DNA of 64,000 nucleotides from an uncultured Oscillospiraceae bacterium (GCA_934646115.1 CAKUEM010000004.1:9891-73890); one strand, 5' to 3'. Counted from the stretch's first letter, positions 7,197 to 47,814 are shown. Numbers and translations are program-made. Notes: generated by a model not told the origin, from the sequence alone.

Positions 7197-8432
7197 ATGA
7201 ATCGAGTGGTTGTGACCGGGATGGGCATCATTTCGCCGATCGGCAATGATCTTGACGCGGTGTGTCAGGCACTGCATACCGGGAAAAACGGGATCGGCGT
7301 GCTGGACGCTGCGGATACGACCGGCTATAAAACAAAGCTTGCCGCGCAGGTGCGCGATTTCCAGGTGGAAGACTGGATCGATAAGCGCAAGGCGCGGCGG
7401 ATGGACCGGTTTTGCCAGTTCTCCGTGGCGGCGGCTACGCGTGCGTATGAAGACGCGGGGCTTGCAGACGCAGAGTTTGACCCGTATCGTGCCGGCGTGA
7501 TCACAGGCTCCGGGATCGGCGGGATCCACACGTTTGAGGTGGAGCATACGAAGTATATGGAAAAGGGGATGCGCGGGATCTCGCCGCTGTTTATCCCCAT
7601 GATGATCCCCAATATCGCGGCGGGCATGATCGCAATGGAATTTGGGCTTCACGGCGCATCATACTGCACGGTGACCGCTTGCGCCTCCGGGTCGCACGCG
7701 ATCGGCGAGGCGTTCCGCGCGATCAAGCATGGGTATCTGGACCTTGCGATTACGGGCGGCGCCGACGCGGTGATCACGCCGATGGCGATCGGCGGTTTTG
7801 CGAACATGACGGCAACGACCGGCGCGGAAGATCCGAACGAGGCAAGTCTTCCGTTTGATGCGCGGCGCGGCGGCTTCGTGATCGGCGAGGGCGCGGGAAT
7901 GCTGGTTTTAGAAAGTCTTTCACACGCGAGAGCGCGCGGCGCGAAAATTTATGGCGAGATCACGGGCTATGGCGCCACGTCAGACGCATATCACATCACA
8001 GCGCCAGATCCGGAAGGGAAGAGCGCGGCGGTTGCAATGCAGCTTGCTCTGCGTGAGGCGGGGCTTGCGCCGCAGGATGTGTCATACATCAATGCGCACG
8101 GCACAGGAACGCCCGCGAATGACCAGATGGAAACGCGCGCGATCAAGCTTGCGTTTGACGATGCGGCAAAGCATGTTGCGATGAGCTCAACAAAATCGAT
8201 GACCGGGCATCTGCTCGGCGCGGCGGGCGCGGCGGAGGCGATCTTCTGCCTGCTCGCGATGCGCGATGGATTTGTTCCGCCAACGATCAATTATAAAGAA
8301 AAAGATCCGGAATGCGATCTGGATTGCACGCCCAACAAGGCGCGGGAAATGCCGATTTCAAGCGCGCTTTCAAACTCGCTGGGCTTTGGCGGGCATAATG
8401 CGAGTTTGCTGTTTCAGAAAGTGGAGGACTAG
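7197..8432 (+). CDS. fabF: 3-oxoacyl-ACP synthase II
   Basis: MNRVVVTGMG..., TACASG, NAHGTGT, GHLLGAAG, GFGGHNASLLF. The ATG at 7197 gives the canonical N-terminus. Confidence 0.94.
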   Translation: MNRVVVTGMGIISPIGNDLDAVCQALHTGKNGIGVLDAADTTGYKTKLAAQVRDFQVEDWIDKRKARRMDRFCQFSVAAATRAYEDAGLADAEFDPYRAGVITGSGIGGIHTFEVEHTKYMEKGMRGISPLFIPMMIPNIAAGMIAMEFGLHGASYCTVTACASGSHAIGEAFRAIKHGYLDLAITGGADAVITPMAIGGFANMTATTGAEDPNEASLPFDARRGGFVIGEGAGMLVLESLSHARARGAKIYGEITGYGATSDAYHITAPDPEGKSAAVAMQLALREAGLAPQDVSYINAHGTGTPANDQMETRAIKLAFDDAAKHVAMSSTKSMTGHLLGAAGAAEAIFCLLAMRDGFVPPTINYKEKDPECDLDCTPNKAREMPISSALSNSLGFGGHNASLLFQKVED

Positions 8433-8437
8433 TTGCG

Positions 8438-8884
8438 ATGGACGAAAAGAAGATCCAGGCGATCAAAAAGCTTGCGTTTGACATGGCGGATAAGCTGAAA
8501 AAGAACGAGCTGACCGCGTTTGATCTGGAATATGATGATTTAAAAATCTCCGTTCGGCGCGAGGGGATAGTCAGCGCTCCTCCGCCTGTTGCCGCCGCGC
8601 CGCGCGCGGAAGCGCCTGCCCAGCCCGAGCACGCGGAGGAGCGCCCTGCGGGCAACGTAGTCAAAAGCCCGATCGTCGGCACGTTTTATCAGGCGGCGGC
8701 GCCCGGGGGCGAGCCGTTTGTCAAGGCGGGCGCGAAGGTGCAGCGCGGCGACGTGCTCTGCATCATCGAGGCGATGAAAATGCTCAATGAGATCGAAAGC
8801 GAATTTGAGGGCGAGGTCACGCAGATCCTCGTTGCGGACGGCGAGCTGGTTGAATTCGGCCAGCCGCTGATGGTGATTGAATAA
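8438..8884 (+). CDS. accB: acetyl-CoA carboxylase biotin carboxyl carrier protein
   Basis: 148 aa with a Pro/Ala linker and the biotinylation motif EAMKM. Confidence 0.93.
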   Translation: MDEKKIQAIKKLAFDMADKLKKNELTAFDLEYDDLKISVRREGIVSAPPPVAAAPRAEAPAQPEHAEERPAGNVVKSPIVGTFYQAAAPGGEPFVKAGAKVQRGDVLCIIEAMKMLNEIESEFEGEVTQILVADGELVEFGQPLMVIE

Positions 8885-15525: not shown

Positions 15526-16188
15526 TCAAAGCTGCCAAACGTCTTTTTCCATCACATCGATCGCAAACGGATGCGGAAGCCGCGGCGGCTCAAGCTTGTG
15601 ACTATAGCTTGTCATCACAAGCGGAAGCCCGGTCAGCTCGCTCACATGCTGCGCGAAAGCCCCGGTCTCTTCCACCGTGGCGCGCGTGGTCTCGCGCCCT
15701 AGATTGCTGTTGTTCACCAGCCCGGTAAAGCGGACATGGCAGGCGTCCTCGATCTCGCGGCGGATTTCCAGAACCTGCTCCGGCGTGCGTGTATCCGGCC
15801 GATATTGGTTTAAAACCATAAGCATATCATATTCCGCCGGGTCAGAAAGAAATTCCGCAAAACGCCCGAGCGCATAGGCGCCGCGGTCGTCCCCGCCCAG
15901 GTCGATGACCGAATAGGCAGGCGAGTGCGCGAACACGGAATAGGCCTCTGCCGGGATCGATGGCAGATCCACATTTGAGTTCGCAAACGGTGAGGAAATA
16001 AAGCGAATGCCCGCGGCTTCAAGCGCCGCCTGGCTGTCTTTCGACCGGAAATAGGGATTTACGATATCCAGGTCGCAGATCGAGCAATCGCGCCCCTGCT
16101 TTTTGTGATAGAAGGCGAGGTTGACCGCAAGGTTCGTTTTTCCGCTGCCGTAATGCCCTGCGAAAATCGTGATTTTTTTAAACTGCAA
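15526..16188 (-). CDS. P-loop NTPase of the MinD/ParA/CooC (SIMIBI) class, function unknown
   Basis: 220 aa with a TTG start behind aggagg. Walker A is GHYGSGKT and Walker B-like is VIDLGGDD. Located 84 nt upstream of the delta-subunit gene on the same strand. Confidence 0.7.
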   Translation of the reverse strand: MQFKKITIFAGHYGSGKTNLAVNLAFYHKKQGRDCSICDLDIVNPYFRSKDSQAALEAAGIRFISSPFANSNVDLPSIPAEAYSVFAHSPAYSVIDLGGDDRGAYALGRFAEFLSDPAEYDMLMVLNQYRPDTRTPEQVLEIRREIEDACHVRFTGLVNNSNLGRETTRATVEETGAFAQHVSELTGLPLVMTSYSHKLEPPRLPHPFAIDVMEKDVWQL

Positions 16189-16253: not shown

Positions 16254-16371
16254 GGGCAATAATCTACTTGAAACAACAAAATTCGCGCAATATTTTGTGA
16301 AAAACGTCATGACGCGCGGTCAAAAAAGAGAAAAGAGGGAAAGTTTGGCATGACGCGCGCAAAATGCGCGC

Positions 16372-16411
16372 AAAAAAACCAGAGCCGAAGCACACGTCAT
16401 CAGCTCTGGTT
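16372..16411 (-). terminator. rho-independent terminator downstream of spo0A
   Basis: Minus-strand aaccagagc-loop-gcucugguu followed by UUUUUUUG. It begins about 40 nt after the stop at 16453. Confidence 0.7.
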
Positions 16412-16452
16412 TTAAAATGCTTGAAGCATGCAGATACTAACGGCGGAGCGGC

Positions 16453-17232
16453 TTAGCCCGCCACGCGCTGCTTATACTGCAAATGCAGCTTATCGGCGAT
16501 CATCGCGATGAATTCAGAATTCGTCGGCTTGCCCTTGGTGTTTGAGACCGTGTAGCCGAAGAAGCTGTTGAGCGTGTCGATGTCGCCGCGATTCCACGCG
16601 GTTTCGATCGCATGGCGAATGGCGCGCTCCACGCGCGAGCTGGTCGTTCCGAATTTTTTCGCAACGGAGGGATAGAGAACCTTTGTGATCGCGTTGATCA
16701 CTTCCATATCTTCCACAGCCATCATGATCGCTTCGCGGACATAATGATAGCCTTTGATATGCGCAGGAACACCCACTTCGTGAATAATATTTGTTACAGC
16801 GAGCTTAAGCGCGGCGCGCTGCTCATCTGCAAATTTTTCCTGCGGGGTAAAACGTTCGCTGTAAAACGTGCGGATCCGGTGGATCAGCGCGTCTAACGAA
16901 AACGGCTTGATCAAAAAATAAGTCACGCCAAGCGTGTTCGCCTCTGCGATCAGCGACTCATTGGCAAACGAAGAGATCATGAAAAACAACGGTCGCTTCG
17001 GAAGCTCCATCGCATTGACCGCCTGCATGACGCCAAGCCCGTCTAACTGCGGCAGAATGTTGTTTAAGATCACAACGTCCGGCGTGTCAGAGGCGATACG
17101 CTCTACCAGCTCGTTGCCGTCAGAAACCGTGGCGGTCACTTCAAAGTCCGCCTCCTCAAGCAAACGGTCAGAAATCAATGTGCGAAAATCAAGGTTATCA
17201 TCGGCTACAATGGTTCTGATTAAAGTGTTCAT
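16453..17232 (-). CDS. spo0A: sporulation master regulator Spo0A (receiver plus Spo0A_C DNA-binding domain); phospho-acceptor position reads Asn
   Basis: [13 protein letters not shown]...[14 protein letters not shown]...MISSFA...LIKPF...[24 protein letters not shown]...[15 protein letters not shown]...[15 protein letters not shown]. The C-terminal domain is unmistakably Spo0A. Start taken at ATG 17232. Confidence 0.93.
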
Positions 17233-17520
17233 ATGTCCCTCCAAAAATATAACTGTAAAAATATGGGTAATCTCGATGTGATTAATTTACCATAAAATCT
17301 CAGAAAATGCAACAACTTTTTGGAAAATATTTCAAATAATTTACAAAGGGATTGCGCGCCGAAAAAAATATTTGAAAAAGCATGCGAAAAAACAGGAGAT
17401 CCGCCGAATGCTGTCACACCCGGCGGATACGAAAAAATCACAGCGCTGCACACAGGAAACCGGCGCAGACGGGGAATGCCGGGGCTACGGCGAAGCCATT
17501 ATCACGAACATATGATTATA

Positions 17521-18567
17521 TTATGCCACACTTTTATATATTTTGTCAAATGCTGTCGAAATCATATGGTCGATAAAGATGCCGTAGCCCTTCTGCGGGT
17601 CGTTGACCAGAACGTGCGTCACCGCGCCGACAAGCTTTCCGTTTTGAAGGATCGGCGAGCCGCTCATGCCCTGCACGATGCCGCCCGTTTTTGCGATCAG
17701 GCGCTCATCGGTGACGCGGATGAGCATATTTTTGGTTTCGCCAGACTCTTCTGGATAAATTTTTGTAATTTCAATTTGATATTCTTCCACATGGTCGCCC
17801 TCGATATTGGACAAAATAACGGCAGGACCGGTCTTTATTTCATTTCGCGCGGCGATCGGAACGGCGCTTTTTTCAAACTGCGGAAGCGCCGCCTCTGTTT
17901 GACCAAAAATTCCGCTTTCCGTGTTGGCGGAAAGCGTGCCGTAGTCCTCGCGCAGGTTATAATCGCCCACCAGCTCGCCCGGTGCGCCCGCCGCGCCCTT
18001 CTTCACATCCGTCACGCGCGATTCCATCACAGACCCATGCCCGAACGGGATGAGCAGGTTGGAATCCGTATCGCACACGCCGTGCCCCAGCGCGCCGAAA
18101 ATGTGATGCTCCGGGTCATAGAACGTGATTGTTCCGATGCCGGCCATGCTGTCGCGGATCCAAAGCCCGAGCTTGCAGTCGCCCTGCGTATCACGCACCG
18201 GGGAAACCGTAACGCTGCGTTCCTTCTGCTCGTGCAGCACGGTGAGAACAAGCGGCTTTTCGCCGTTTTTGAGCAGGCATTCGCGAAAATTTTCGTTGCT
18301 TTGCACCGGGGTATCATTGATTTTTGTAATCACGTCGCCCGGCGCAATGCCGGCGTCGGCAGCGGGGCTTTTCTGCCCTTGCCCGGTCTCGATCGGCGTG
18401 ACTCCCGCCACGACAACGCCGGAGGAATAAAGCTTGATCCCGGTCGTGTGACCGATCGGAACGACCTGCTTGATGTCAGAGGCTTGCAGCGCAAGTGCAG
18501 GCGTGCTGACGCCTGCGAAAAAAAGAATTGCGAGAAAAAGGGAGATTCCTTTGTTTCTTTTTAGCAT
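17521..18567 (-). CDS. spoIVB: stage IV sporulation protein B, SpoIVB peptidase (S55) with PDZ domain
   Basis: Signal/anchor MLKRNKGISLFLAILFFAGV, PDZ segment GIAPGDVITKIND, catalytic contexts GALGHGV and GMSGSPI. Start at ATG 18567 behind aaggagtg. It lies directly upstream of spo0A, as in Bacillus. Confidence 0.9.
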   Translation of the reverse strand: MLKRNKGISLFLAILFFAGVSTPALALQASDIKQVVPIGHTTGIKLYSSGVVVAGVTPIETGQGQKSPAADAGIAPGDVITKINDTPVQSNENFRECLLKNGEKPLVLTVLHEQKERSVTVSPVRDTQGDCKLGLWIRDSMAGIGTITFYDPEHHIFGALGHGVCDTDSNLLIPFGHGSVMESRVTDVKKGAAGAPGELVGDYNLREDYGTLSANTESGIFGQTEAALPQFEKSAVPIAARNEIKTGPAVILSNIEGDHVEEYQIEITKIYPEESGETKNMLIRVTDERLIAKTGGIVQGMSGSPILQNGKLVGAVTHVLVNDPQKGYGIFIDHMISTAFDKIYKSVA

Positions 18568-18794
18568 GCGATCACTCCTTTCTGAATCGCCCGCTTTTAC
18601 TATGCGCAATGCGCGGCGAATTAGTGACGCCCGGATGTGACAAATGCTGACTTCGCTTCCTATGCAAGCAGTATAGCGCCGCGCCGGCGCTGGCTGCGAA
18701 GTTTATACATGAGATTTTTGCGCCGCATGCCGCAGATTTCCAATTTTTAGAGGGGGTTTCAGGAAACGCTTTTGCGCGCATCGCGGCAAATAAA

Positions 18795-20011: not shown

Positions 20012-20254
20012 GATTTCGAGATTATGATACCACCGTTCCGCCGCGCTGTCAAGTGTTTTTTTTAAAAAATTTTTTTGGCGCGCCGAAAGTGCGGAAAAAA
20101 CGCAAGAAAAGTATGGGAATCGCGGCGCGGTTGTGTTATAATAAATTAAAAAGAATGTGCTGCTGATAAAAAATGCCCGCAGGGCGGGATATCACATAGA
20201 ACAAAGCGGAACCAATGCCGTGGTGTGCCGCGGTGTAGAGGACGGTGGGGACAG

Positions 20255-22393
20255 ATGTCAAAAAAGAAAAAACCATGGAATCACGAGGATTTGATTTCTC
20301 AGGACATGGAGGAGGACCTTCAGCTGGAGGATTTTACGCTGGAGGACGTGCTGGCTGAGTTTGGCGAAAAGCGCAAGCCGCTGCAGGCGATCGCCGCGGA
20401 GGAGTTTGACCTCGGCGCGTTTGAGACGCTTTATGAGGAAAGGAATGCGGAAGCGCCAAAGGCGACCGCGAAGCCTGCGGAAGAAAAGAAGAGGGCCCCG
20501 GCGCAAAAAAGCGAGCAGGCGCCGCCCAAAGCGTCCGTCAGGCAGGAGGAGGCTGCGCGCCCCGCGCCGAAGCCTGCAATAGCAAAGCAGGACGAGGAAA
20601 CGCCGCGGACCGTGCACGCAGTGTCCGCCAAACAGCAGGAGAATGCGCCGCACCATACCGCGCGCTTAGACGAGACGTTGCGCCTCAATGAGTTTTTTGA
20701 GAGCGAGGAGGATTATGACGAGCCGATCGAGGAAGAGGAATATGAGCCGGAGCAGCCGGGCGCCTATGTCAAGCGAAACGCGCTGCATGTGCGAAATATG
20801 GCGATCCGCTCTGTGTTTGCGTTTCTGCTCTGCCTGCCTGCCTGCTATTTGACATTTGCGCAGAATCTCGGAATCCCCGTTCCGGGCTTTATTTCCTGGG
20901 CGGAGCATCCGTTTCGCTTTTTGCTGCTTCTTGCTGGGCTGCAGCTGATCGCGGTTGCGCTGCATCTGCGCATGATCGCGCGCGGGCTGAAAAATCTGTT
21001 TTGCTTCCGCGCGGATCTGTTTTCTGTGCTCAGCGCCTCCACAGTCGCCACGCTGCTGCACGCGGGCTATATGATGCTTGTGCGTGATGCGCGGCACACG
21101 CCGCCGTATTGCGCGGTCAATATCGTGCTGCTGTTTTTCGCGGGGCTTGGGCTGTATCTGCGCGATTCCGCGCGCCTGCGCGCCTGCAAAACGGCAAGCA
21201 GCTCGAAAGAGCCGCTCGGCGTGTTCATCTCTGAGTGTGACACGCGGATCAATTTGATCAAGCACCCGGTCAGCGAGACCGAGCCGTTTACAAAATACGT
21301 GCAAATGCCGGACGGCGCCGAGCGGTTTTGGAGCTATCTTGCGCCCATCCTTCTGATCGGCGCGCTGGTTTTTGCGGGCATCTCGTCCTTCGGGCGGCAC
21401 GATGCGGGGCGCTTTTTCTGGGCATTTTCTGCGATTTTATCCGTGTCTGCGCCGTTTTTCCTGCTGCTTTGCTATCCGCTTCCGTTTTCAAAAATCACGC
21501 GGCGGCTCTCACAGCTGGGCGCGGCGCTTGCCGGGTGGTATGCGGCGTTCTCGCTCTCCGGCGAGCGGAATTTGATCATCCGCGATGTGGATCTGTTCCC
21601 GAAGGGGAGCATTACGCTGCACGGGCTGAAGGTGTTTAATAATCATTCTCTGGAAAAGTCGGTCAGCTATACGACCAGTATTTTAAATGAGTCGAAAAGC
21701 GGGCTTGCCCCGGTGTTTGCCGAGCTTTTGAAAAGCCAATACGGTAAGTGCGAGCGCGTGTATCACCTGCTGCATCACGAGTCCGGCGGGATGGAGGCGG
21801 ACGTCTGCGGCGACCATGTTCTGCTTGGCACGGCGGCATTTCTGCTGCGCATGGGCGTGCGTATTCCCGAGCAGGCAAACGCGAAAAGCGCGATGTATCT
21901 CGCGGTGAACGGCTCGCTTGCGGCGCTGTTTAATTTGCAGTATAAATTACCGAATGACGTGCGGCTCAGCCTGGAAAACGTGGTGCGCAGCCGGGTGAAA
22001 CCGGTCATGGCGACGATCGATTGCAACCAGAACCCGATCATGATCGAGCATGCGCTGCGCGTGCGTGCCGGCGCGATCGAATATCCGCATATCGAAGAGC
22101 GGCTGGCGCTCGCTGCGGACGATCAGTTTTTGGAATATGACCCGAGCGCGATGATCGCGCGCGCAGGGCTTACCCCGTTTGCAAGCGCGGTGCTCGGTGC
22201 GCGCCGCCTGCGCCGGGTCACGATCCGCAACGTGGTGCTGTCCACGGTATGCGCGGTGATCGGGATGCTTTTGATGTTTTATATCACGTTCGCCGGAAGC
22301 TATGAATCGGGCGCGGCGTATAATGTGCTGCTTTACCAGCTGCTGTGGACGCTTCCGGTCTGGCTGCTGTCCATGCGCAGCGGCGCAAATTAA
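20255..22393 (+). CDS. multi-pass membrane protein with a P-type-ATPase-like layout, degenerate catalytic motifs and a ~190-aa charged low-complexity N-terminus
   Basis: 712 aa from ATG 20255. Acidic/Lys/Pro-rich N-terminus, about 6-8 TM segments, CYPLP where CPC is expected (21470-21484), RDVDLFPKGSITLHG where DKTGT is expected (21581-21622), TIDCN where TGD is expected. No GDGxND. Confidence 0.6.
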   Translation: MSKKKKPWNHEDLISQDMEEDLQLEDFTLEDVLAEFGEKRKPLQAIAAEEFDLGAFETLYEERNAEAPKATAKPAEEKKRAPAQKSEQAPPKASVRQEEAARPAPKPAIAKQDEETPRTVHAVSAKQQENAPHHTARLDETLRLNEFFESEEDYDEPIEEEEYEPEQPGAYVKRNALHVRNMAIRSVFAFLLCLPACYLTFAQNLGIPVPGFISWAEHPFRFLLLLAGLQLIAVALHLRMIARGLKNLFCFRADLFSVLSASTVATLLHAGYMMLVRDARHTPPYCAVNIVLLFFAGLGLYLRDSARLRACKTASSSKEPLGVFISECDTRINLIKHPVSETEPFTKYVQMPDGAERFWSYLAPILLIGALVFAGISSFGRHDAGRFFWAFSAILSVSAPFFLLLCYPLPFSKITRRLSQLGAALAGWYAAFSLSGERNLIIRDVDLFPKGSITLHGLKVFNNHSLEKSVSYTTSILNESKSGLAPVFAELLKSQYGKCERVYHLLHHESGGMEADVCGDHVLLGTAAFLLRMGVRIPEQANAKSAMYLAVNGSLAALFNLQYKLPNDVRLSLENVVRSRVKPVMATIDCNQNPIMIEHALRVRAGAIEYPHIEERLALAADDQFLEYDPSAMIARAGLTPFASAVLGARRLRRVTIRNVVLSTVCAVIGMLLMFYITFAGSYESGAAYNVLLYQLLWTLPVWLLSMRSGAN

Positions 22394-40226: not shown

Positions 40227-40492
40227 CGTGATCGCTCCTTTCAAAGCAGAGTTTTTCCGGTTTGGAAGAAATTATACAAAAAAAGGAGACGAGCCTGTTG
40301 CGTTCAAGCTCGCCTCTAAAAAAGGGGGGGTATGTAAATTGGGACCTTGCTCAATCCCAATTTGCAAGTTCATTATAGCATTGCATGCTGCGAAATGTGT
40401 GAATAATTTGTGAATAAAAAAAGAATGTTTTGCAACGAATATTTTTCCGCCTGCGGCAAAAAATGAAGAAAAAGCATGCAGGAGGGGAGCGC

Positions 40493-41971
40493 ATGACATT
40501 TTGCGGAGATCTCAAGAAGGACATGGCGGCGCTGCGCGAGCGGCTGAAGGACGATGATACGATCGTGTTCCGCACGTTTGAAAATAAAACATCGATGCAG
40601 CTGCGCGGCTGTGTTGTGTATACCGAGGTGCTGGTCAGCACGCCGGTGATCGATCATTATATCGTTGCGCCGCTGATCAATACAGACATGAAAGCCCTGC
40701 GCCCCAAGCCGTATCTGGTCGATACCGTGATGGAAAAGGTACTGGAAGCAAACGAGGTGAAGGCGCATTCCACGCTGGAGGATGCGATCAGCGCGCTGCT
40801 GATCGGCGACACACTCATCCTGTTAGACGGCGCGCCATGCGTGATCGCGGCGAACTCAAAAAGCTATCCCGCGCGCGGTGTGGGCGCGCCGGAAACGGAG
40901 ACCACGGTCGCAGGACCGAAGGAAGCGTTTACTGAGGTTTTGGTGTTTAACATGGGACTTTTGCGCCGCAAGATGAAAAATCCCAAGCTCAAGCTCAAGA
41001 CAATGGAGGTTGGAAAAATCACAAAAACGCGCATTTGCTTAAGCTATGTGGAGGGATTGGTCGAGCCGATGCTGCTGGAGGAGCTGACCGCGCGGCTGCA
41101 ACACTTTGAGATCGACGCGGCGCTGGATTCGAACTATCTTGCCGAGCTGTGCCGCGACGATCGCGCCTCTCCGTTTAAAACGGTCGGAACGACGGAGCGC
41201 CCGGACGTGGTTGCGGGCAAGCTGCTTGAGGGGCGCGTTGCGATCCTGTGCGACGGCAGCCCATTCGCGCTGACCGTGCCGTTTCTGTTTTTAGAGAATT
41301 TTCAATCCAACGAGGATTATTATAATCATTTTTATTTTGCAACGTTTACGCGCATCATGCGCTATTTTTCGTTTTTTTTAACGATCAGCTTGCCCGGACT
41401 GTATGTTGCGCTCATCGCGTATCATAAAGAGATGATCCCGCTCAATCTCCTGCTCAGCATTGTGAATTCGCGCGATGCCGTGCCGTTTCCGGCGGTCGTT
41501 GAGATGGTGATCCTGCTGGTACTGTTCGATCTGCTGCGTGAGGCGGGGCTGCGCCTGCCCGCGCCGATCGGCGGAACGATCGGGACGGTGGGCGGCATTG
41601 TGCTGGGGCAGAGCATCGTGACCGCGCGCCTTGTTTCCGCCGAAATGATCATCATCGTTGCGGTTTGCGCGATCACGTCGTTTTTAACGCCGAAGCTCGA
41701 TATTGAGCTGATTTTATGCCGGATGCTGATTTTATTTTTCGCCGCAACACTTGGCATCTATGGCTATGCGATCGGGATCATCGCGATCCTTGTGCATCTT
41801 GCGAGCCTGCGCTCCTTCGGCGTGGAGTATTTGAGCTATCTGTCCGCGACCAGCGCGCAGACCGCGAAGGACGTCTATGTGCGCGCGCCGTGGTGGATGA
41901 TGCGGCGGCGCCCCGCGGCGATCCAGCGGCGGAACCTGACGCGTCTGCGGCACAAGGGGGCAAAACGATGA
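40493..41971 (+). CDS. spore germinant receptor A subunit (GerAA/GerKA family)
   Basis: ...LIGDTLILLDGAPCVIAANSKSYPARGV..PETETTVAGPKEAFTE... followed by TM segments. ATG 40493 behind aggagggg; alternative ATG at 40463. Confidence 0.88.
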   Translation: MTFCGDLKKDMAALRERLKDDDTIVFRTFENKTSMQLRGCVVYTEVLVSTPVIDHYIVAPLINTDMKALRPKPYLVDTVMEKVLEANEVKAHSTLEDAISALLIGDTLILLDGAPCVIAANSKSYPARGVGAPETETTVAGPKEAFTEVLVFNMGLLRRKMKNPKLKLKTMEVGKITKTRICLSYVEGLVEPMLLEELTARLQHFEIDAALDSNYLAELCRDDRASPFKTVGTTERPDVVAGKLLEGRVAILCDGSPFALTVPFLFLENFQSNEDYYNHFYFATFTRIMRYFSFFLTISLPGLYVALIAYHKEMIPLNLLLSIVNSRDAVPFPAVVEMVILLVLFDLLREAGLRLPAPIGGTIGTVGGIVLGQSIVTARLVSAEMIIIVAVCAITSFLTPKLDIELILCRMLILFFAATLGIYGYAIGIIAILVHLASLRSFGVEYLSYLSATSAQTAKDVYVRAPWWMMRRRPAAIQRRNLTRLRHKGAKR

Positions 41972-42960
41972 AACGGCGGCTTTTTGCGGCGCTTTTGCCG
42001 CTTTTTCTGCTCACCGGCTGCTGGGATTACAACGAGCCGAATATGCAGAGCTATGTGCTGGGTATGAGCGTGGATTTTATAGAAAATCAATACCTTGTCT
42101 GCATTGAAACGGTGAAGATCACGGGCGAGCCGGAATCACTAAGCTCCAGCGGCGGCGTGATGCTGGAGGCGCGCGGTTTAACGATGTTTGATGCGGTGCG
42201 CGATGCGATCATGTCCGCCGGGAAGAAGCTGTATTGGGGCCACGCAGAGCTTGTGATTTTGGGCGAGCAGGTCGCGCGCGAGCAGCTGGTCGCCGTGACG
42301 GACGTGCTGTCCCGCGCGCAGGATGTGTATTCCAACGTAAGCCTTGCGGTGGCGAGCGATGGCTGCACAGCGAAGCAGGTGCTCAGCGCCAAGTCGCCGC
42401 GCGGCACGATCGCGAGCGAGCATATCTCGCATGTGCTGCAAAACGAGGAGGCGTCGCGCCGGTTTGTCGATACCGAGCTATGGCAGCTTCAGCGCGGGTT
42501 TTCCTATACGCTGCTGCCCGCTGTTCATCTGGATCACGGGCAGCGGTATCCGGTCGTTGAGGGCTGCGCTGTGATTCAGAATAAAGCGCTCGTCGGCTAT
42601 CTGAGCGGCGAGGAGGTGCAGGCATATTCGCTGGTCGATTCCGCGTGCGCAGGCGGCTATTTGCCCGCGATCACGCTGGATTCCGGGGCGGTCGTGTCGC
42701 TTGAGGTCCTGCGCGCCGTGCCGACGCGGCTGAAAGACCAAACGCGCCTGGATGTGATCGTCTCGCTCTCCAGCGTGGATGGCGTTTGCGATATCATGGA
42801 TTCCGCGCTGCGGCATGAAATCTGCGAAAAGGCGAGCGCGCTGCTTTCGCGCCAGCTGGGCGGACTGGTCGCAAAGCCGTTTGGCAATCCGCTGCCGGAT
42901 TCGCGCTTTGACGTGCATGTCAGCCTGCACAGCGCCGGGCTGCTGCGCCGCAGCACCTAA
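41968..42960 (+). CDS. spore germinant receptor C subunit lipoprotein (Ger(x)C family)
   Basis: MKRRLFAALLPLFLLTGCWDY... has a lipobox LLTGC. The ATGA junction overlaps the A-subunit stop. The track extension to 41716 is rejected. Confidence 0.85.
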   Translation: MKRRLFAALLPLFLLTGCWDYNEPNMQSYVLGMSVDFIENQYLVCIETVKITGEPESLSSSGGVMLEARGLTMFDAVRDAIMSAGKKLYWGHAELVILGEQVAREQLVAVTDVLSRAQDVYSNVSLAVASDGCTAKQVLSAKSPRGTIASEHISHVLQNEEASRRFVDTELWQLQRGFSYTLLPAVHLDHGQRYPVVEGCAVIQNKALVGYLSGEEVQAYSLVDSACAGGYLPAITLDSGAVVSLEVLRAVPTRLKDQTRLDVIVSLSSVDGVCDIMDSALRHEICEKASALLSRQLGGLVAKPFGNPLPDSRFDVHVSLHSAGLLRRST

Positions 42961-42964
42961 GGGG

Positions 42965-43189
42965 GTGAGTGGCTTGGGCTTGATCATTGTTCCGGCGCTA
43001 TATGGTGCGATTTTATGGCTCGATCACCGTCTGTGCGCAGGCGCTGAACCGGAGGGACGCGCGGCGCGCACGCTGTATCGCGTTCTGGCCGTGCTGGCGC
43101 TGGTTTTCGCGCTGCCCACTTCGTTTGCGCTTCGGCTGGATCATGTGGGCGCGTCGCTTTCCGGGCTGGTTTCCATGTTTGCGCGGTAA
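42965..43189 (+). CDS. small two-TM membrane protein inside the ger operon (possible D-type receptor subunit)
   Basis: About 72-74 aa from GTG 42965 or TTG 42974. VSGLGLIIVPALYGAILWL...LYRVLAVLALVFALPTSFAL...LSGLVSMFAR. It fills the whole gap between the C and B genes on the same strand. Confidence 0.5.
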   Translation: MSGLGLIIVPALYGAILWLDHRLCAGAEPEGRAARTLYRVLAVLALVFALPTSFALRLDHVGASLSGLVSMFAR

Positions 43190-43201
43190 GAGGAGAGAAC
43201 T

Positions 43202-44287
43202 ATGACAAAAGAGATCATTACAAATCGGCAGGGGTTTACGCTGCTTGTGATTTTTACGATGTGCAACGCGTATTCGCTGCTGTTCGGCGCGGATTGCGGG
43301 CGCGATATCTGGATCGCGTATCTGCTCGCCGCGGCGCTTGCGGTTTTGCTTTGGGCGCTGCTGACGCGCAGCTTCGAGCGGCGGCCGTATGGCTCGCTGT
43401 TTGAGATGCTTTCCGCCGCGTTCGGAAATGTGGGCGGGCGCGTGGTCACGGCGCTGCTCTGCGTTTACGCGGCGCTGTCATGCACCACGTCGCTCGCGCT
43501 GTTCGGGCGCTTTACGCAGATGACCGCGCTTTCCAAAACGCCGCAGCTTCTGCTGCCGCTGCTTCTGCTTCTGCTTGCGGCATGGGGCTTAAAATCCGGG
43601 CTGGAGGTCGTTGCACGCGGCGCGAGCATGCTGTTTTATTTTGTGATTATCACGTTTTTATATTTCGTCATATTCGGCGTGCCGCTGCTTGACGCGCGCA
43701 ATATCACGCCGGTTCTTGCGGACGGGATCCTCCGCCCGGCGCGCAGCGCGCTTTCGATTTTTACGAACCAGTTTGGCGATACGCTGCTGCTGTTTGCCGT
43801 GTATCCAAGTATCCGGCGCGCGCCGAACCGGCGGCGGACGATGATCTGCGCAATGCTCAGTGCGGGCATTTTTGCCGCCGTGATCGCGCTGATCACGGTG
43901 CTCACGATCGGCGGAAATCAGACCGGGGCGGAATTCTTCCCGGTATTTACGATTTTATCGATCCGCAATATCGGCGGATATATCCGGCACATGGAAATTC
44001 TGACCTCGATCGCGATGACATTTTTCGTGTTCATCCGCGCGACGTTATGCCTTTATTTTATCGCAAACGCCTGCTCGCACCTGTTCTCCGCGCGCGGCTA
44101 TCAGCGAATTTTAACCCCGATCGCGCTGCTGATCGCGAGCGGAACGCAGCTTTTATATTGGGATATGATGAGCCTGCGCGCCCGCATCGAGAGCAACTGG
44201 AACCTGTATATCCTCATTCCGTTGCAGCTCATTTTGCCGGTCGTGACCGTGCTGTTGCTGCGGCGCTATCCGCCGCGCAGGGAATGA
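43202..44287 (+). CDS. spore germinant receptor B subunit (GerAB family, APC-type permease fold)
   Basis: 361 aa, MTKEIITNRQGFTLLVIFTMCNAYSLLFG..., 10 TM-like segments, RBS gaggag. Confidence 0.85.
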   Translation: MTKEIITNRQGFTLLVIFTMCNAYSLLFGADCGRDIWIAYLLAAALAVLLWALLTRSFERRPYGSLFEMLSAAFGNVGGRVVTALLCVYAALSCTTSLALFGRFTQMTALSKTPQLLLPLLLLLLAAWGLKSGLEVVARGASMLFYFVIITFLYFVIFGVPLLDARNITPVLADGILRPARSALSIFTNQFGDTLLLFAVYPSIRRAPNRRRTMICAMLSAGIFAAVIALITVLTIGGNQTGAEFFPVFTILSIRNIGGYIRHMEILTSIAMTFFVFIRATLCLYFIANACSHLFSARGYQRILTPIALLIASGTQLLYWDMMSLRARIESNWNLYILIPLQLILPVVTVLLLRRYPPRRE

Positions 44288-45204: not shown

Positions 45205-45255
45205 TGCCTCCGAAATGCAAAAAACCCCTAAACAAGCGTTTAAAGGTTTTTAAAC

Positions 45256-45621
45256 TATGAGCAAGTCTATAAGCCGAGTTCTGTATTTGACAGTCATCTA
45301 TCTAAGCCGTGCGTTGCCGCATGGCTTCAGCCACCTCTGAAAAACGACCGGGCAAGTCTTTCCCGGGGGCATGCGCCCCCTCGGCTTTTCGTCACGGTGT
45401 TGCTCCGGATAGAGTTTACATGACCGGACAGTCTCCAGCCGGCCGGTGAGCTCTTACCTCACCTTTCCACCCTTACCGCATCGCTGCGGCGGTATCTCTC
45501 TGTTGCACTTTTCCTGAAGTCGCCTTCGGCGGGCGTTACCCGTTATCCCTGCCCTATGGAGCTCGGACTTTCCTCGTGTGCGGGCTTTCGCCCTGCACCC
45601 GCGACTGTCTGGCTTACTCAC
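45256..45621 (-). ncRNA. rnpB: RNase P RNA (ribozyme subunit)
   Basis: The minus-strand RNA contains the universal GAGGAAAGUCCGAGCUCCAUAGGGCAGGG...GGGUAACGCCCG core and ACAGAACUCGGCUUAUAG near the 3-prime end. P1 can form between 5-prime GAGUAAG and 3-prime CUUGCUC. Length is about 365 nt; ends are accurate to about 5 nt. Confidence 0.9.
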
Positions 45622-46716: not shown

Positions 46717-47814
46717 TTATCGCCGCATTTTCCAGTGTTTTTTTATCGGAATCGCAAGAAAAAGCGCGAACCATGCAAACAGCCAGTACGCAGAGCCGAT
46801 CATATGCGGCGCGTTTGGCGCAAACGCGGTGACCGCTTGCGGAAAAAGCGCCGGAATCTGCGTGATGCAAAGCGCAAACAGCGCGGAGAGCGCCGTATGG
46901 AGCAGCTTTCCGCAAAAATAGGGCGCAGCGGAGAGCGCGTCCTTCGGGAGCAGCGAAAGCACCTGGCAATGGACAGACAGCCCCGAAAAACCAAGCAGCG
47001 CCGCCGCTAGGATAAAGCACGGCGCAAGCGTTTCCGGGGTGGGCGAAAGCGCGCACAGCCCGGTTGTCACCTCAAGACAGCCGGTTACGGCGCATTGCGC
47101 AAGCGCCCCGCCGCCCAACAGGCGCGAAAGCGCCGGAATCACGTGAAATTCGGTCAATATTCGCAGAAGCACCGAGAAAAACAGGACGAATGCGCACACA
47201 TTGAGCGTGGAAAACAGCGCGTTTTTCACCGCCTGCGGAAACACTGCGGAAAACGGCTGTGCCGGCGCATAGGCTGCGCCGCAATGCCCGGGCGGCTCGC
47301 GGCGACGATAAAAGCGAAAGAGGATGCCGGTGCAGATCGCGGCGGAAACATGCACCGCATAAAGCAAAAGCCCGATCCGCATGCTGTGAAAGACGCCTGC
47401 GCCGACCGCGCCAAACAAAAACGCCGGACCGGAATTATTGCAAAAGGCGAGCAGCCGCTCGGTCTCGGCTTTGCTGCATAGCCCGCGGCGATTCAGCTCG
47501 ACCGCGCACGCCGCGCCGACCGGAAATCCGCCGATCAGACCGAGAAACAGCGTAGAGCTGCCCGCGCCGCACACGCGAAATAACGGGCGCATCAGCCCCT
47601 CGCCCAGCCGCCCGAGCCGCGCCGCCAGCCCGGACTCCATCACAAGCCCGGACAGGACGAAAAACGGGAACAGCGACGGGATCAACACGTTGCCGCACAG
47701 GGCGAGCGCATCGCGCGCCGCGGTCGCTGCATGCGTGGGATAAAGAAGCAGCCCCGCCGCGATCACCAAAACGGCGAGCAGCGTAAACATAAGCGAAATG
47801 CGTGTGCGAGACAT
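46717..47814 (-). CDS. ylbJ: sporulation integral membrane protein YlbJ
   Basis: 365 aa, ...ALCGNVLIPSLFPFFVLSGLV...LIGGFPVGA...FCNNSGPAFLFG.... Nucleoside-recognition-type membrane protein typical of YlbJ. Confidence 0.8.
   Translation of the reverse strand: MSRTRISLMFTLLAVLVIAAGLLLYPTHAATAARDALALCGNVLIPSLFPFFVLSGLVMESGLAARLGRLGEGLMRPLFRVCGAGSSTLFLGLIGGFPVGAACAVELNRRGLCSKAETERLLAFCNNSGPAFLFGAVGAGVFHSMRIGLLLYAVHVSAAICTGILFRFYRRREPPGHCGAAYAPAQPFSAVFPQAVKNALFSTLNVCAFVLFFSVLLRILTEFHVIPALSRLLGGGALAQCAVTGCLEVTTGLCALSPTPETLAPCFILAAALLGFSGLSVHCQVLSLLPKDALSAAPYFCGKLLHTALSALFALCITQIPALFPQAVTAFAPNAPHMIGSAYWLFAWFALFLAIPIKKHWKMRR

Follow-up and report, generated by a model that had tools for sequence, protein, structure and literature searches.

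Can a bacterium enter sporulation without phosphorylating Spo0A? The question is raised by a spo0A gene in a 64,000-nucleotide stretch of DNA from an uncultured Oscillospiraceae bacterium (GCA_934646115.1 CAKUEM010000004.1:9891-73890; this whole stretch is called the window here, and positions are counted from its first letter). In the bacilli and clostridia that have been studied, phosphorylation of an aspartate (Asp) in Spo0A is the switch that launches sporulation (PMC3533761, PMC11210211). In the protein described here, the query, that residue is an asparagine (Asn). We find that the Asp is missing throughout a deep clade of Spo0A proteins and that the active site around it has been remodelled in a coordinated way, neither of which was foreseen by the preliminary description of the gene. 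Our best reading, to which we give a probability of roughly 0.6, is that this is an orthologous Spo0A with an Asp-less receiver (ALR), which would work without histidine-aspartate (His-Asp) phosphotransfer in a lineage that probably still sporulates.

The gene begins with an ATG at 17232-17230 on the minus strand. The features on which its identity depends are the following.

16453..17232, minus strand: spo0A coding sequence, 259 amino acids plus stop (TIGR02875; Pfam Response_reg and Spo0A_C).
17237..17242, minus strand: Shine-Dalgarno sequence GGAGGG, 4 nucleotides upstream of the spo0A ATG, read from the sequence.
16870..17211, minus strand: receiver (REC) domain, residues 8-121 (PF00072, 61 bits, cutoff 30.2).
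16486..16797, minus strand: Spo0A_C DNA-binding and transactivation domain, residues 146-249 (PF08769, 157 bits, full profile 1-104).
17062..17064, minus strand: codon AAC for Asn57 at the phospho-acceptor Asp position, as aligned to the acceptor Asp of 1dz3/1qmp.
17059..17061, minus strand: codon AAC for Asn58 (position D+1), read from the sequence.
17521..18609, minus strand: spoIVB (TIGR02860 equivalog, 362 bits, cutoff 305), immediately upstream of spo0A.

Is this really Spo0A? The protein scores 293.4 bits against the TIGR02875 Spo0A equivalog (cutoff 200) over residues 5-254 of 259, and it has the two-domain architecture of the family, REC followed by Spo0A_C, with Foldseek matches to 1lq1/1fc3 and 1qmp. 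Trans_reg_C, the OmpR/PhoB-type output domain, is absent from the Pfam matches; the output domain is Spo0A_C, unlike that of the pneumococcal regulator RitR. Because of the TIGR02875 score, the adjoining spoIVB, the domain architecture and the structure matches, we conclude that the open reading frame (ORF) at 16453-17232 is a genuine orthologous Spo0A, as the preliminary description held, from an uncultured Clostridia species known only from metagenomes. It is placed within the Spo0A diversity of the Oscillospiraceae (NCBI sense). Every feature of the family that could be tested here is present except the acceptor residue. An ALR is a computationally recognised receiver domain that lacks the Asp phosphorylation site, a subset of the pseudo-receivers (PMC12632262), and with a PF00072 match above cutoff and an Asn at the D site the protein belongs to that class by definition.

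Codons 57 and 58 lie within the translated segment [15 protein letters not shown], and in the HMMER alignment Asn57 falls, with no gap, on the phospho-acceptor Asp of Geobacillus stearothermophilus Spo0A-N 1dz3/1qmp (query [16 protein letters not shown] against 'pdilllDiimphldgl'). An AlphaFold2 model built from 113 homologues predicts the REC domain as a (beta-alpha)5 fold of five strands and five helices with a per-residue confidence (pLDDT) of 91-98; in the Foldseek comparison it deviates by 0.9 A from phosphorylated Spo0A-N (1qmp_B) across 121 columns, with a TM-score of 0.93 normalised to 1qmp_B. In this model Asn57 is the final residue of beta3 (strand 53-57), where Spo0A is expected to carry its phospho-acceptor (Asp56 in Bacillus subtilis). 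The remaining landmarks are kept, namely D11-D12 (17197-17202), S87 (16972-16974) and K109 (16906-16908), so that four of the canonical five receiver residues (DD, D, T/S, K) are present and the D is N57. The preliminary description had reported both the AAC AAC codons at 17059-17064 and the intact acidic pair, Ser and Lys, and sequence, alignment and model bear it out. It had also named a different Asp in the acceptor pocket as a finding that would overturn it. We looked for such a residue and reject it: the alignment is gap-free, and D52 and D64 are invariant in Asp-type Spo0A too. Asn57 is unable to form an acyl phosphate, therefore His-Asp phosphotransfer at the canonical site is excluded, and from this we infer that this Spo0A is not phosphorylated.

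Could the Asn codons be an error of sequencing or assembly, or a mutation that only one strain carries? Only one transition separates GAC from AAC. However, the identical Spo0A protein is present on at least 20 independently assembled contigs, and AAC AAC is found in 10 of the 10 metagenome contigs compared, which come from 10 different ENA or Logan samples and diverge by about 1-2% in nucleotides from the window. Because the codons recur in all of these independent contigs, which differ from the window at other sites, and Asn is also found in homologues at 60-84% identity, the chance of an artefact or private mutation is negligible, and the assembly error allowed for in the preliminary description can be dropped. 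All remaining coding-region differences among the 10 contigs fall at third codon positions, a pattern that is partly an artefact, as the contigs were retrieved by their identical protein. Within the 90%-identity cluster the only variants are A47V, T33S, I159L and F224Y. The order spoIVB-spo0A is seen in 8 of the 10 population contigs shown, which are all those that reach far enough upstream.

Is the Asn lineage-wide or strain-specific? This check, called for in the preliminary description, was made with an alignment of 208 Spo0A sequences, drawn from the homologues, from 80 loci of species-representative genomes and from B. subtilis, and the answer is that it is lineage-wide. Asn is the residue in the closest of the 120 best homologues (60-84% identity); a further set at 53-62% has Ser or Gly, and beyond these Asp prevails, with an occasional Glu. 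A neighbour-joining tree places 80 sequences in one clade (bootstrap 80/100), with N, S or G at the acceptor in 79 of them and Asp in one (P0022); only one N-type sequence of the 208-sequence tree lies outside it. Asn dominates the query's own subclade (27 N, 2 S, 1 D), and Ser its sister group (39 S, 8 G, 3 N). A profile search with the S/G group recovers the same sequences and then drops directly to Asp-type proteins. As sampled in this way the clade is bounded, with about 75-85 clusters at 90% identity among at least 8000 Spo0A clusters, a share of about 1%. In a library at 50% identity the 122 nearest full-length representatives have Asp (99), Glu (11) or another residue (12), the last being N, S and G plus three odd or misaligned cases. 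A word-index homologue search with the receiver domain only returned 7 candidates and was uninformative.

The sequences also say something about the age of the event. The clade has a sequence divergence of about 45%, and on the 208-sequence tree the acceptor column has undergone at least 21 changes, that of K109 two. The best Spo0A match among the species-representative genomes returned is 65% identical to the query, and every source label in the clade is a metagenome or metagenome-assembled genome (MAG), given as 'Clostridia', 'Eubacteriales' or 'Oscillospiraceae bacterium'. The acceptor codons AAC, AGC and GGA are consistent with a single-transition path from GAC. The single transition named in the preliminary description thus fits, while the recent event that it implied does not, the loss being ancient. 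Taken together these comparisons place the substitution as fixed in the species and the clade, and on the tree the Asp was replaced in the ancestor of a deep clade that now has N, S or G. A recently asporogenous strain, another of the earlier suggestions, is ruled out by the fixation in the species, by N, S or G throughout a deep clade of about 80 clusters, and by purifying selection on spoIVB (see below).

What has become of the receiver domain since then? The Asp-less clade is invariant at G39, D52, L60, D64, G65, P81, P110 and F111; 79 of its 80 members keep the Lys of K109, and G102 and R119 are 99% conserved. Mean pairwise REC identity is 0.50-0.55 in the clade and 0.46-0.65 in Asp-containing clusters, and the ratio of REC to DNA-binding domain divergence is 4.2-6.3, as against 2.0-5.4. 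By these measures the receiver domain is conserved and not decaying. The acidic pair is kept as well (EE 36, DD 26, DE 12), more strictly than in the Asp-type Spo0A of the Oscillospiraceae. In those proteins the second residue of 'DD' is often C, A, S, G, N or T (e.g. P0071, P0078 and P0288-P0332, with the motifs ADCN, ADAN and ADNT); both acidic residues are found in only 65 of 127, and a strict five-residue definition makes the rest pseudo-receivers too.

Changes are found in the active site. Of the 80 clade members, 77 have a polar residue (S, N, T or D) at D+1 (position 58), where 120 of the 127 other Spo0A proteins have V, L, I, A or M. At T+1 (position 88) many members have a bulky L, P or I instead of A, S or G, and at K+3 (position 112) S or T stands in place of the D or E of other Spo0A proteins; 12 of the 80 have Ala at the T position itself. 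A coordinated remodelling of this kind is the pattern expected if the phosphochemistry was abandoned and the domain kept a role in structure or regulation. From the missing acceptor and the clade-wide changes at D+1, T+1 and K+3 we infer that Spo0A activity is independent of His-Asp phosphotransfer.

The same pocket can be read in another way, in which control by phosphorylation persists, either by deamidation of Asn57 to Asp, whether spontaneous or by an enzyme, or at a nearby residue (Ser or Thr at 57/58 in the S-type proteins, Asp58 in the 'ND' variants). The Mg2+- and phosphoryl-binding residues D11-D12, S87 and K109 are all kept, and Asn is found in 27 of the 30 members of the query's subclade despite about 50% REC divergence. 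Moreover, an Asn at this site of a receiver domain can rapidly revert to Asp (Maule et al., PMC4395418), and Ser and Thr substitutions are possible targets of Ser/Thr kinases (PMC4395418). However, the sister lineages have Ser or Gly, neither of which can be converted to Asp, and at positions 57/58 no one residue type is common to the whole clade, in which the pairs SS, NN, GS, ND, NT, NS, ST, SN, SA and GC are found. The Asn-Gly context is absent, and an Asn-Asn pair that closes a beta-strand deamidates poorly, with hydrolysis of the succinimide giving mostly isoAsp; this counts against deamidation of Asn57. The often bulky residue at T+1 (L, P or I) and the Ala at the T position in 12 of 80 argue that access of a phosphodonor is no longer selected. 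We therefore think it improbable that phosphorylation of Spo0A continues by such a route.

The DNA-binding domain tells a simpler story. It shares about 72% identity with its B. subtilis counterpart, and its best-ranked Foldseek match is 1lq1_C, a chain of the DNA-bound Spo0A-C structure, at 68% identity and a root-mean-square deviation of 1.6 A (64-68% identity over the 1lq1 chains). Across 113 homologues the recognition block T196-I209 ([14 protein letters not shown]) varies only at S198 and A204. Because of this identity to B. subtilis and the near-invariant block, binding to 0A boxes has very likely been retained. The DNA-binding domains of the clade appear, if anything, more conserved than those of Asp-type clusters. 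Some related proteins have 2-4 Spo0A_C-like stretches, namely P0002 (376 amino acids, on a 1662-nucleotide contig, with about 115 residues exactly duplicated) and P0135, P0137, P0138 and P0154 (394-454 amino acids); these could be assembly artefacts or real tandem duplications.

We propose the following course of events for an Asp-less Spo0A that is still in use. With the replacement of the Asp in an ancestor of the clade the REC domain became an ALR, to which neither a histidine kinase nor a phosphorelay can pass a phosphoryl group at the canonical site. Purifying selection has preserved the DNA-binding domain in full and, in the receiver, its fold, the acidic pair, the Ser/aromatic switch pair and the Lys-Pro-Phe motif; the protein would therefore still be a working 0A-box-binding regulator whose receiver domain still matters. 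Its activity would be set by an input other than His-Asp phosphotransfer.

Might the gene instead be a paralogue, with a canonical, Asp-containing Spo0A elsewhere in the genome that initiates sporulation? Our view of the genome is the 64 kb of the window, and in this region of the Spo0A tree the acceptor residue changes unusually often, at least 21 times. Yet the gene occupies the canonical spoIVB-spo0A position and scores above the Spo0A equivalog cutoff, there is no second Spo0A-like match in the window, and the DNA-binding domains of the clade are, if anything, the better conserved ones. Among the 80 species-representative loci a second Spo0A-like match is found only in L076, where it is a short C-terminal fragment. 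The idea is thus very unlikely to be right. The fragment in L076, a Clostridia MAG, lies at 8287-8472, about 1.5 kb downstream of an intact spo0A, and is 71% identical to residues 193-254 of the query.

Does the lineage still make spores? Besides spoIVB, two further features of the window bear on this.

40430..44287, plus strand: gerA-type germinant-receptor operon (A, C and B subunits), from family profile matches.
46717..47814, minus strand: ylbJ-like gene for a sporulation integral membrane protein (best family TIGR02871).

The preliminary description had listed spoIVB, a ger operon and ylbJ, and all three were recovered: a spoIVB above its equivalog cutoff, an operon with A, C and B genes, and a ylbJ-like gene. 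The start codon of spoIVB is uncertain, and a 348-amino-acid version is called on related contigs. Over seven strains and the window the gene has 20 synonymous and 6 non-synonymous polymorphic codons; the resulting ratio of non-synonymous to synonymous polymorphism (pN/pS) is about 0.09, compared with 0.01-0.10 in the neighbouring genes compared. A full-length spoIVB is also found near spo0A in G-type (L091, L092) and S-type (L095) relatives. In the ger operon the GerXA-like protein scores 280 bits, the Ger(x)C protein 135 bits and the permease 149 bits (TIGR00912, cutoff 139.55). The GerC-type lipoprotein (41716-42960, plus strand) matches its profile over positions 1-258 of 371, including Spore_GerAC_N, and has a divergent or unrecognised C-terminal domain. 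The sporulation and germination genes seen in the window are thus intact and constrained.

The loss of the Asp predates the divergence of the N, S and G lineages, therefore SpoIVB, a sporulation-specific protease, has been maintained long after it. In 98.9% of human gut Firmicutes genomes, the presence of spo0A goes together with a high sporulation-gene score (PMC8340488). For these reasons, and given the intact and constrained genes of the window, we consider that the lineage most likely still sporulates. Whether the whole deep clade of endospore-forming, gut-type Clostridia would initiate sporulation without any His-Asp phosphotransfer to Spo0A is a broader proposition, and we regard it as evenly balanced.

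Several points weigh against our reading. No cultured member of the clade was found among the source labels, and sporulation has never been observed with this Spo0A. The GerC protein is recognised by its N-terminal domain alone, and the YlbJ-like protein scores 219 bits against TIGR02871, below the cutoff of 304.65. That four of the five catalytic residues are kept would equally be expected if the pocket still does some phosphoryl chemistry. Furthermore, the genomic view is limited to the 64 kb window, which bears on a second spo0A and on any census of sporulation genes and kinases, and the synonymous-only pattern in spo0A is coloured by the way in which the contigs were retrieved.

The first two of these points are also those that favour a lineage that does not sporulate or is losing the ability, in which Spo0A has been repurposed as a phosphorylation-independent general regulator, e.g. 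of metabolism or the stationary phase, and the sporulation genes still present are remnants or serve other functions. In addition, Oscillibacter has been described as asporogenous (PMC3533761), and a genome labelled O. valericigenes An907 (L027) carries Glu at the acceptor. However, the loss of the Asp is ancient, at about 45% clade divergence, and spoIVB is nonetheless full-length in N-, S- and G-type lineages and under purifying selection in the species at a level like that of its neighbours. The three-gene germinant-receptor operon is also intact, and former gut spore-formers usually lose spo0A itself (PMC8340488). A loss of sporulation is therefore unlikely. Among the four explanations put forward in the preliminary description, the two best supported are a phosphorelay-independent Spo0A and an unconventional activation route, and these we retain.

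If not phosphorylation, what would set the activity of this Spo0A? The surroundings of the gene offer some hints.

16369..16413, minus strand: terminator-like hairpin (14-bp stem) with a U-run, downstream of spo0A, from RNA folding.
17386..17428, minus strand: terminator-like hairpin (13 bp) with a T-run, between spoIVB and spo0A, from RNA folding.
17520..17560, minus strand: consensus 0A box and sigma70-like promoter, about 290 nucleotides upstream of spo0A, overlapping the 3' end of spoIVB.

The downstream hairpin has a folding energy of -29.7 kcal/mol for the 88-nucleotide region folded (z = -2.1). The two hairpins bracket spo0A, therefore it is probably transcribed alone, and the one at 17386-17428 implies that spo0A has a promoter of its own within 17233-17385. 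Further upstream, the 0A box TTCGACA (17554-17560, minus strand) lies 4 nucleotides upstream of a near-consensus sigma70-like promoter (TTGACA, an 18-nucleotide spacer and CATAAT, with TG) that overlaps the spoIVB stop codon. About 90-120 nucleotides after this promoter, and ahead of spo0A, comes the hairpin at 17386-17428. This unit of promoter and hairpin could give rise to a small transcript or to a spo0A leader or attenuator, or the hairpin could be a plain spoIVB terminator; among the Rfam families, none for a leader or riboswitch matched the region upstream of spo0A. The window shows no excess of 0A boxes (3 exact matches, 7.4 expected), and that one of the 3 should fall within about 330 nucleotides upstream of spo0A is mildly unexpected.

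Given the bracketing terminators and the 0A box at the promoter, an autoregulated control based on amount is a reasonable first hypothesis. Under it the dosage of Spo0A, made from a monocistronic unit with a 0A box at the upstream promoter, would itself be the input. Alternatively, a protein or ligand partner may act on the remodelled pocket, or another modification may take the place of the phosphoryl group. Dosage, a partner or ligand, and a modification are thus our candidates for the replacement control. No histidine kinase was found among the window ORFs scanned, an incomplete set in a 64 kb region that is too small for a conclusion.

The other genes around spo0A can be dealt with briefly. 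Directly downstream is a gene for a MinD/ParA-like P-loop ATPase (15526-16188, minus strand; weak CbiA match). It is apparently the first gene of a ferredoxin/2-oxoacid:ferredoxin oxidoreductase cluster, and we reject it as a conserved partner of spo0A. A different ParA/MipZ-like gene adjoins spo0A in the S-type relative L096 (9037-9795), which is probably a coincidence. No Pfam or NCBIfam family matches a 722-amino-acid ORF at 20225-22393 (plus strand), which lies just upstream of era and recO, and the sole Rfam family in the window is a bacterial RNase P RNA of class A (45254-45620, minus strand, 258 bits).

How does this protein compare with known systems? It shares with canonical Spo0A (B. 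subtilis, G. stearothermophilus, Clostridioides difficile and Clostridium botulinum) the REC and Spo0A_C domains, the neighbouring spoIVB, the fold and the DNA-binding domain; it differs in having Asn as acceptor, a polar rather than hydrophobic residue at D+1 and Ser rather than Asp at K+3. The laboratory allele D56N of B. subtilis Spo0A is the same Asp-to-Asn substitution. A strain with D56N alone does not sporulate, and further changes in the receiver domain are needed to restore activity; phosphorylation-independent alleles of B. subtilis Spo0A do exist, e.g. sad67. In contrast to the laboratory mutant, the Asn described here is natural, fixed and accompanied by clade-wide changes at D+1, T+1 and K+3.

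Receivers without the D site are also known from other regulators, e.g. RitR of Streptococcus pneumoniae (Asn53), HP1043 and ChxR. Asn is the second commonest substitution in ALRs, and the Lys and an acidic residue usually persist, in salt bridges that support the structure (PMC4395418). In RitR an acidic residue and the Thr are gone as well (PMC4395418), whereas the query Spo0A keeps four of the five active-site residues. Regulators of the RitR type have an OmpR/PhoB output, whereas the query has Spo0A_C and belongs to endospore formation, for which phosphorylation had been taken to be universal.

Closer to home, several separate Oscillospiraceae lineages carry Glu at the acceptor (L005, L006, L008, L027, L032 and L036; P0156, P0162, P0171 and others). 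Like the Asp-less clade, these proteins lack the acceptor Asp, come from the same broad part of the tree and often have spoIVB adjacent. However, they are of separate origins, scattered among Asp-type clusters, and are without the D+1, T+1 and K+3 signature of the N/S/G clade. A Glu at the D site keeps the negative charge and mimics the active state in some regulators (PMC4395418).

The literature has little to say on the subject. The Asp phosphorylation switch is described in PMC3533761, PMC6136694, PMC11210211 and bioRxiv 10.1101/2022.02.25.481979, in which exceptions go unmentioned, and full-text searches found no paper that discusses a natural Asp-less Spo0A. The sole trace is an uncommented count of 7 ALRs among 391 Response_reg~Spo0A_C proteins of Pfam 26, in S6 Table of a 2015 study (PMC4395418). 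Apart from that count, the Asp-less Spo0A is apparently undescribed.

This has practical consequences. Surveys of sporulation in gut MAGs score the presence of spo0A (PMC11536998, PMC8340488) and ignore the acceptor residue, yet about 1% of Spo0A clusters fall in the Asp-less clade and further lineages carry Glu. The clade also makes the universality of Spo0A phosphorylation directly testable. How clostridia activate Spo0A without a phosphorelay is an open question in the field, and if our reading is true these organisms would provide a ready-made system for finding an alternative input to Spo0A. Phosphorylated Spo0A would then not be universal for endospore formation, and the trigger of sporulation would itself be evolutionarily replaceable.

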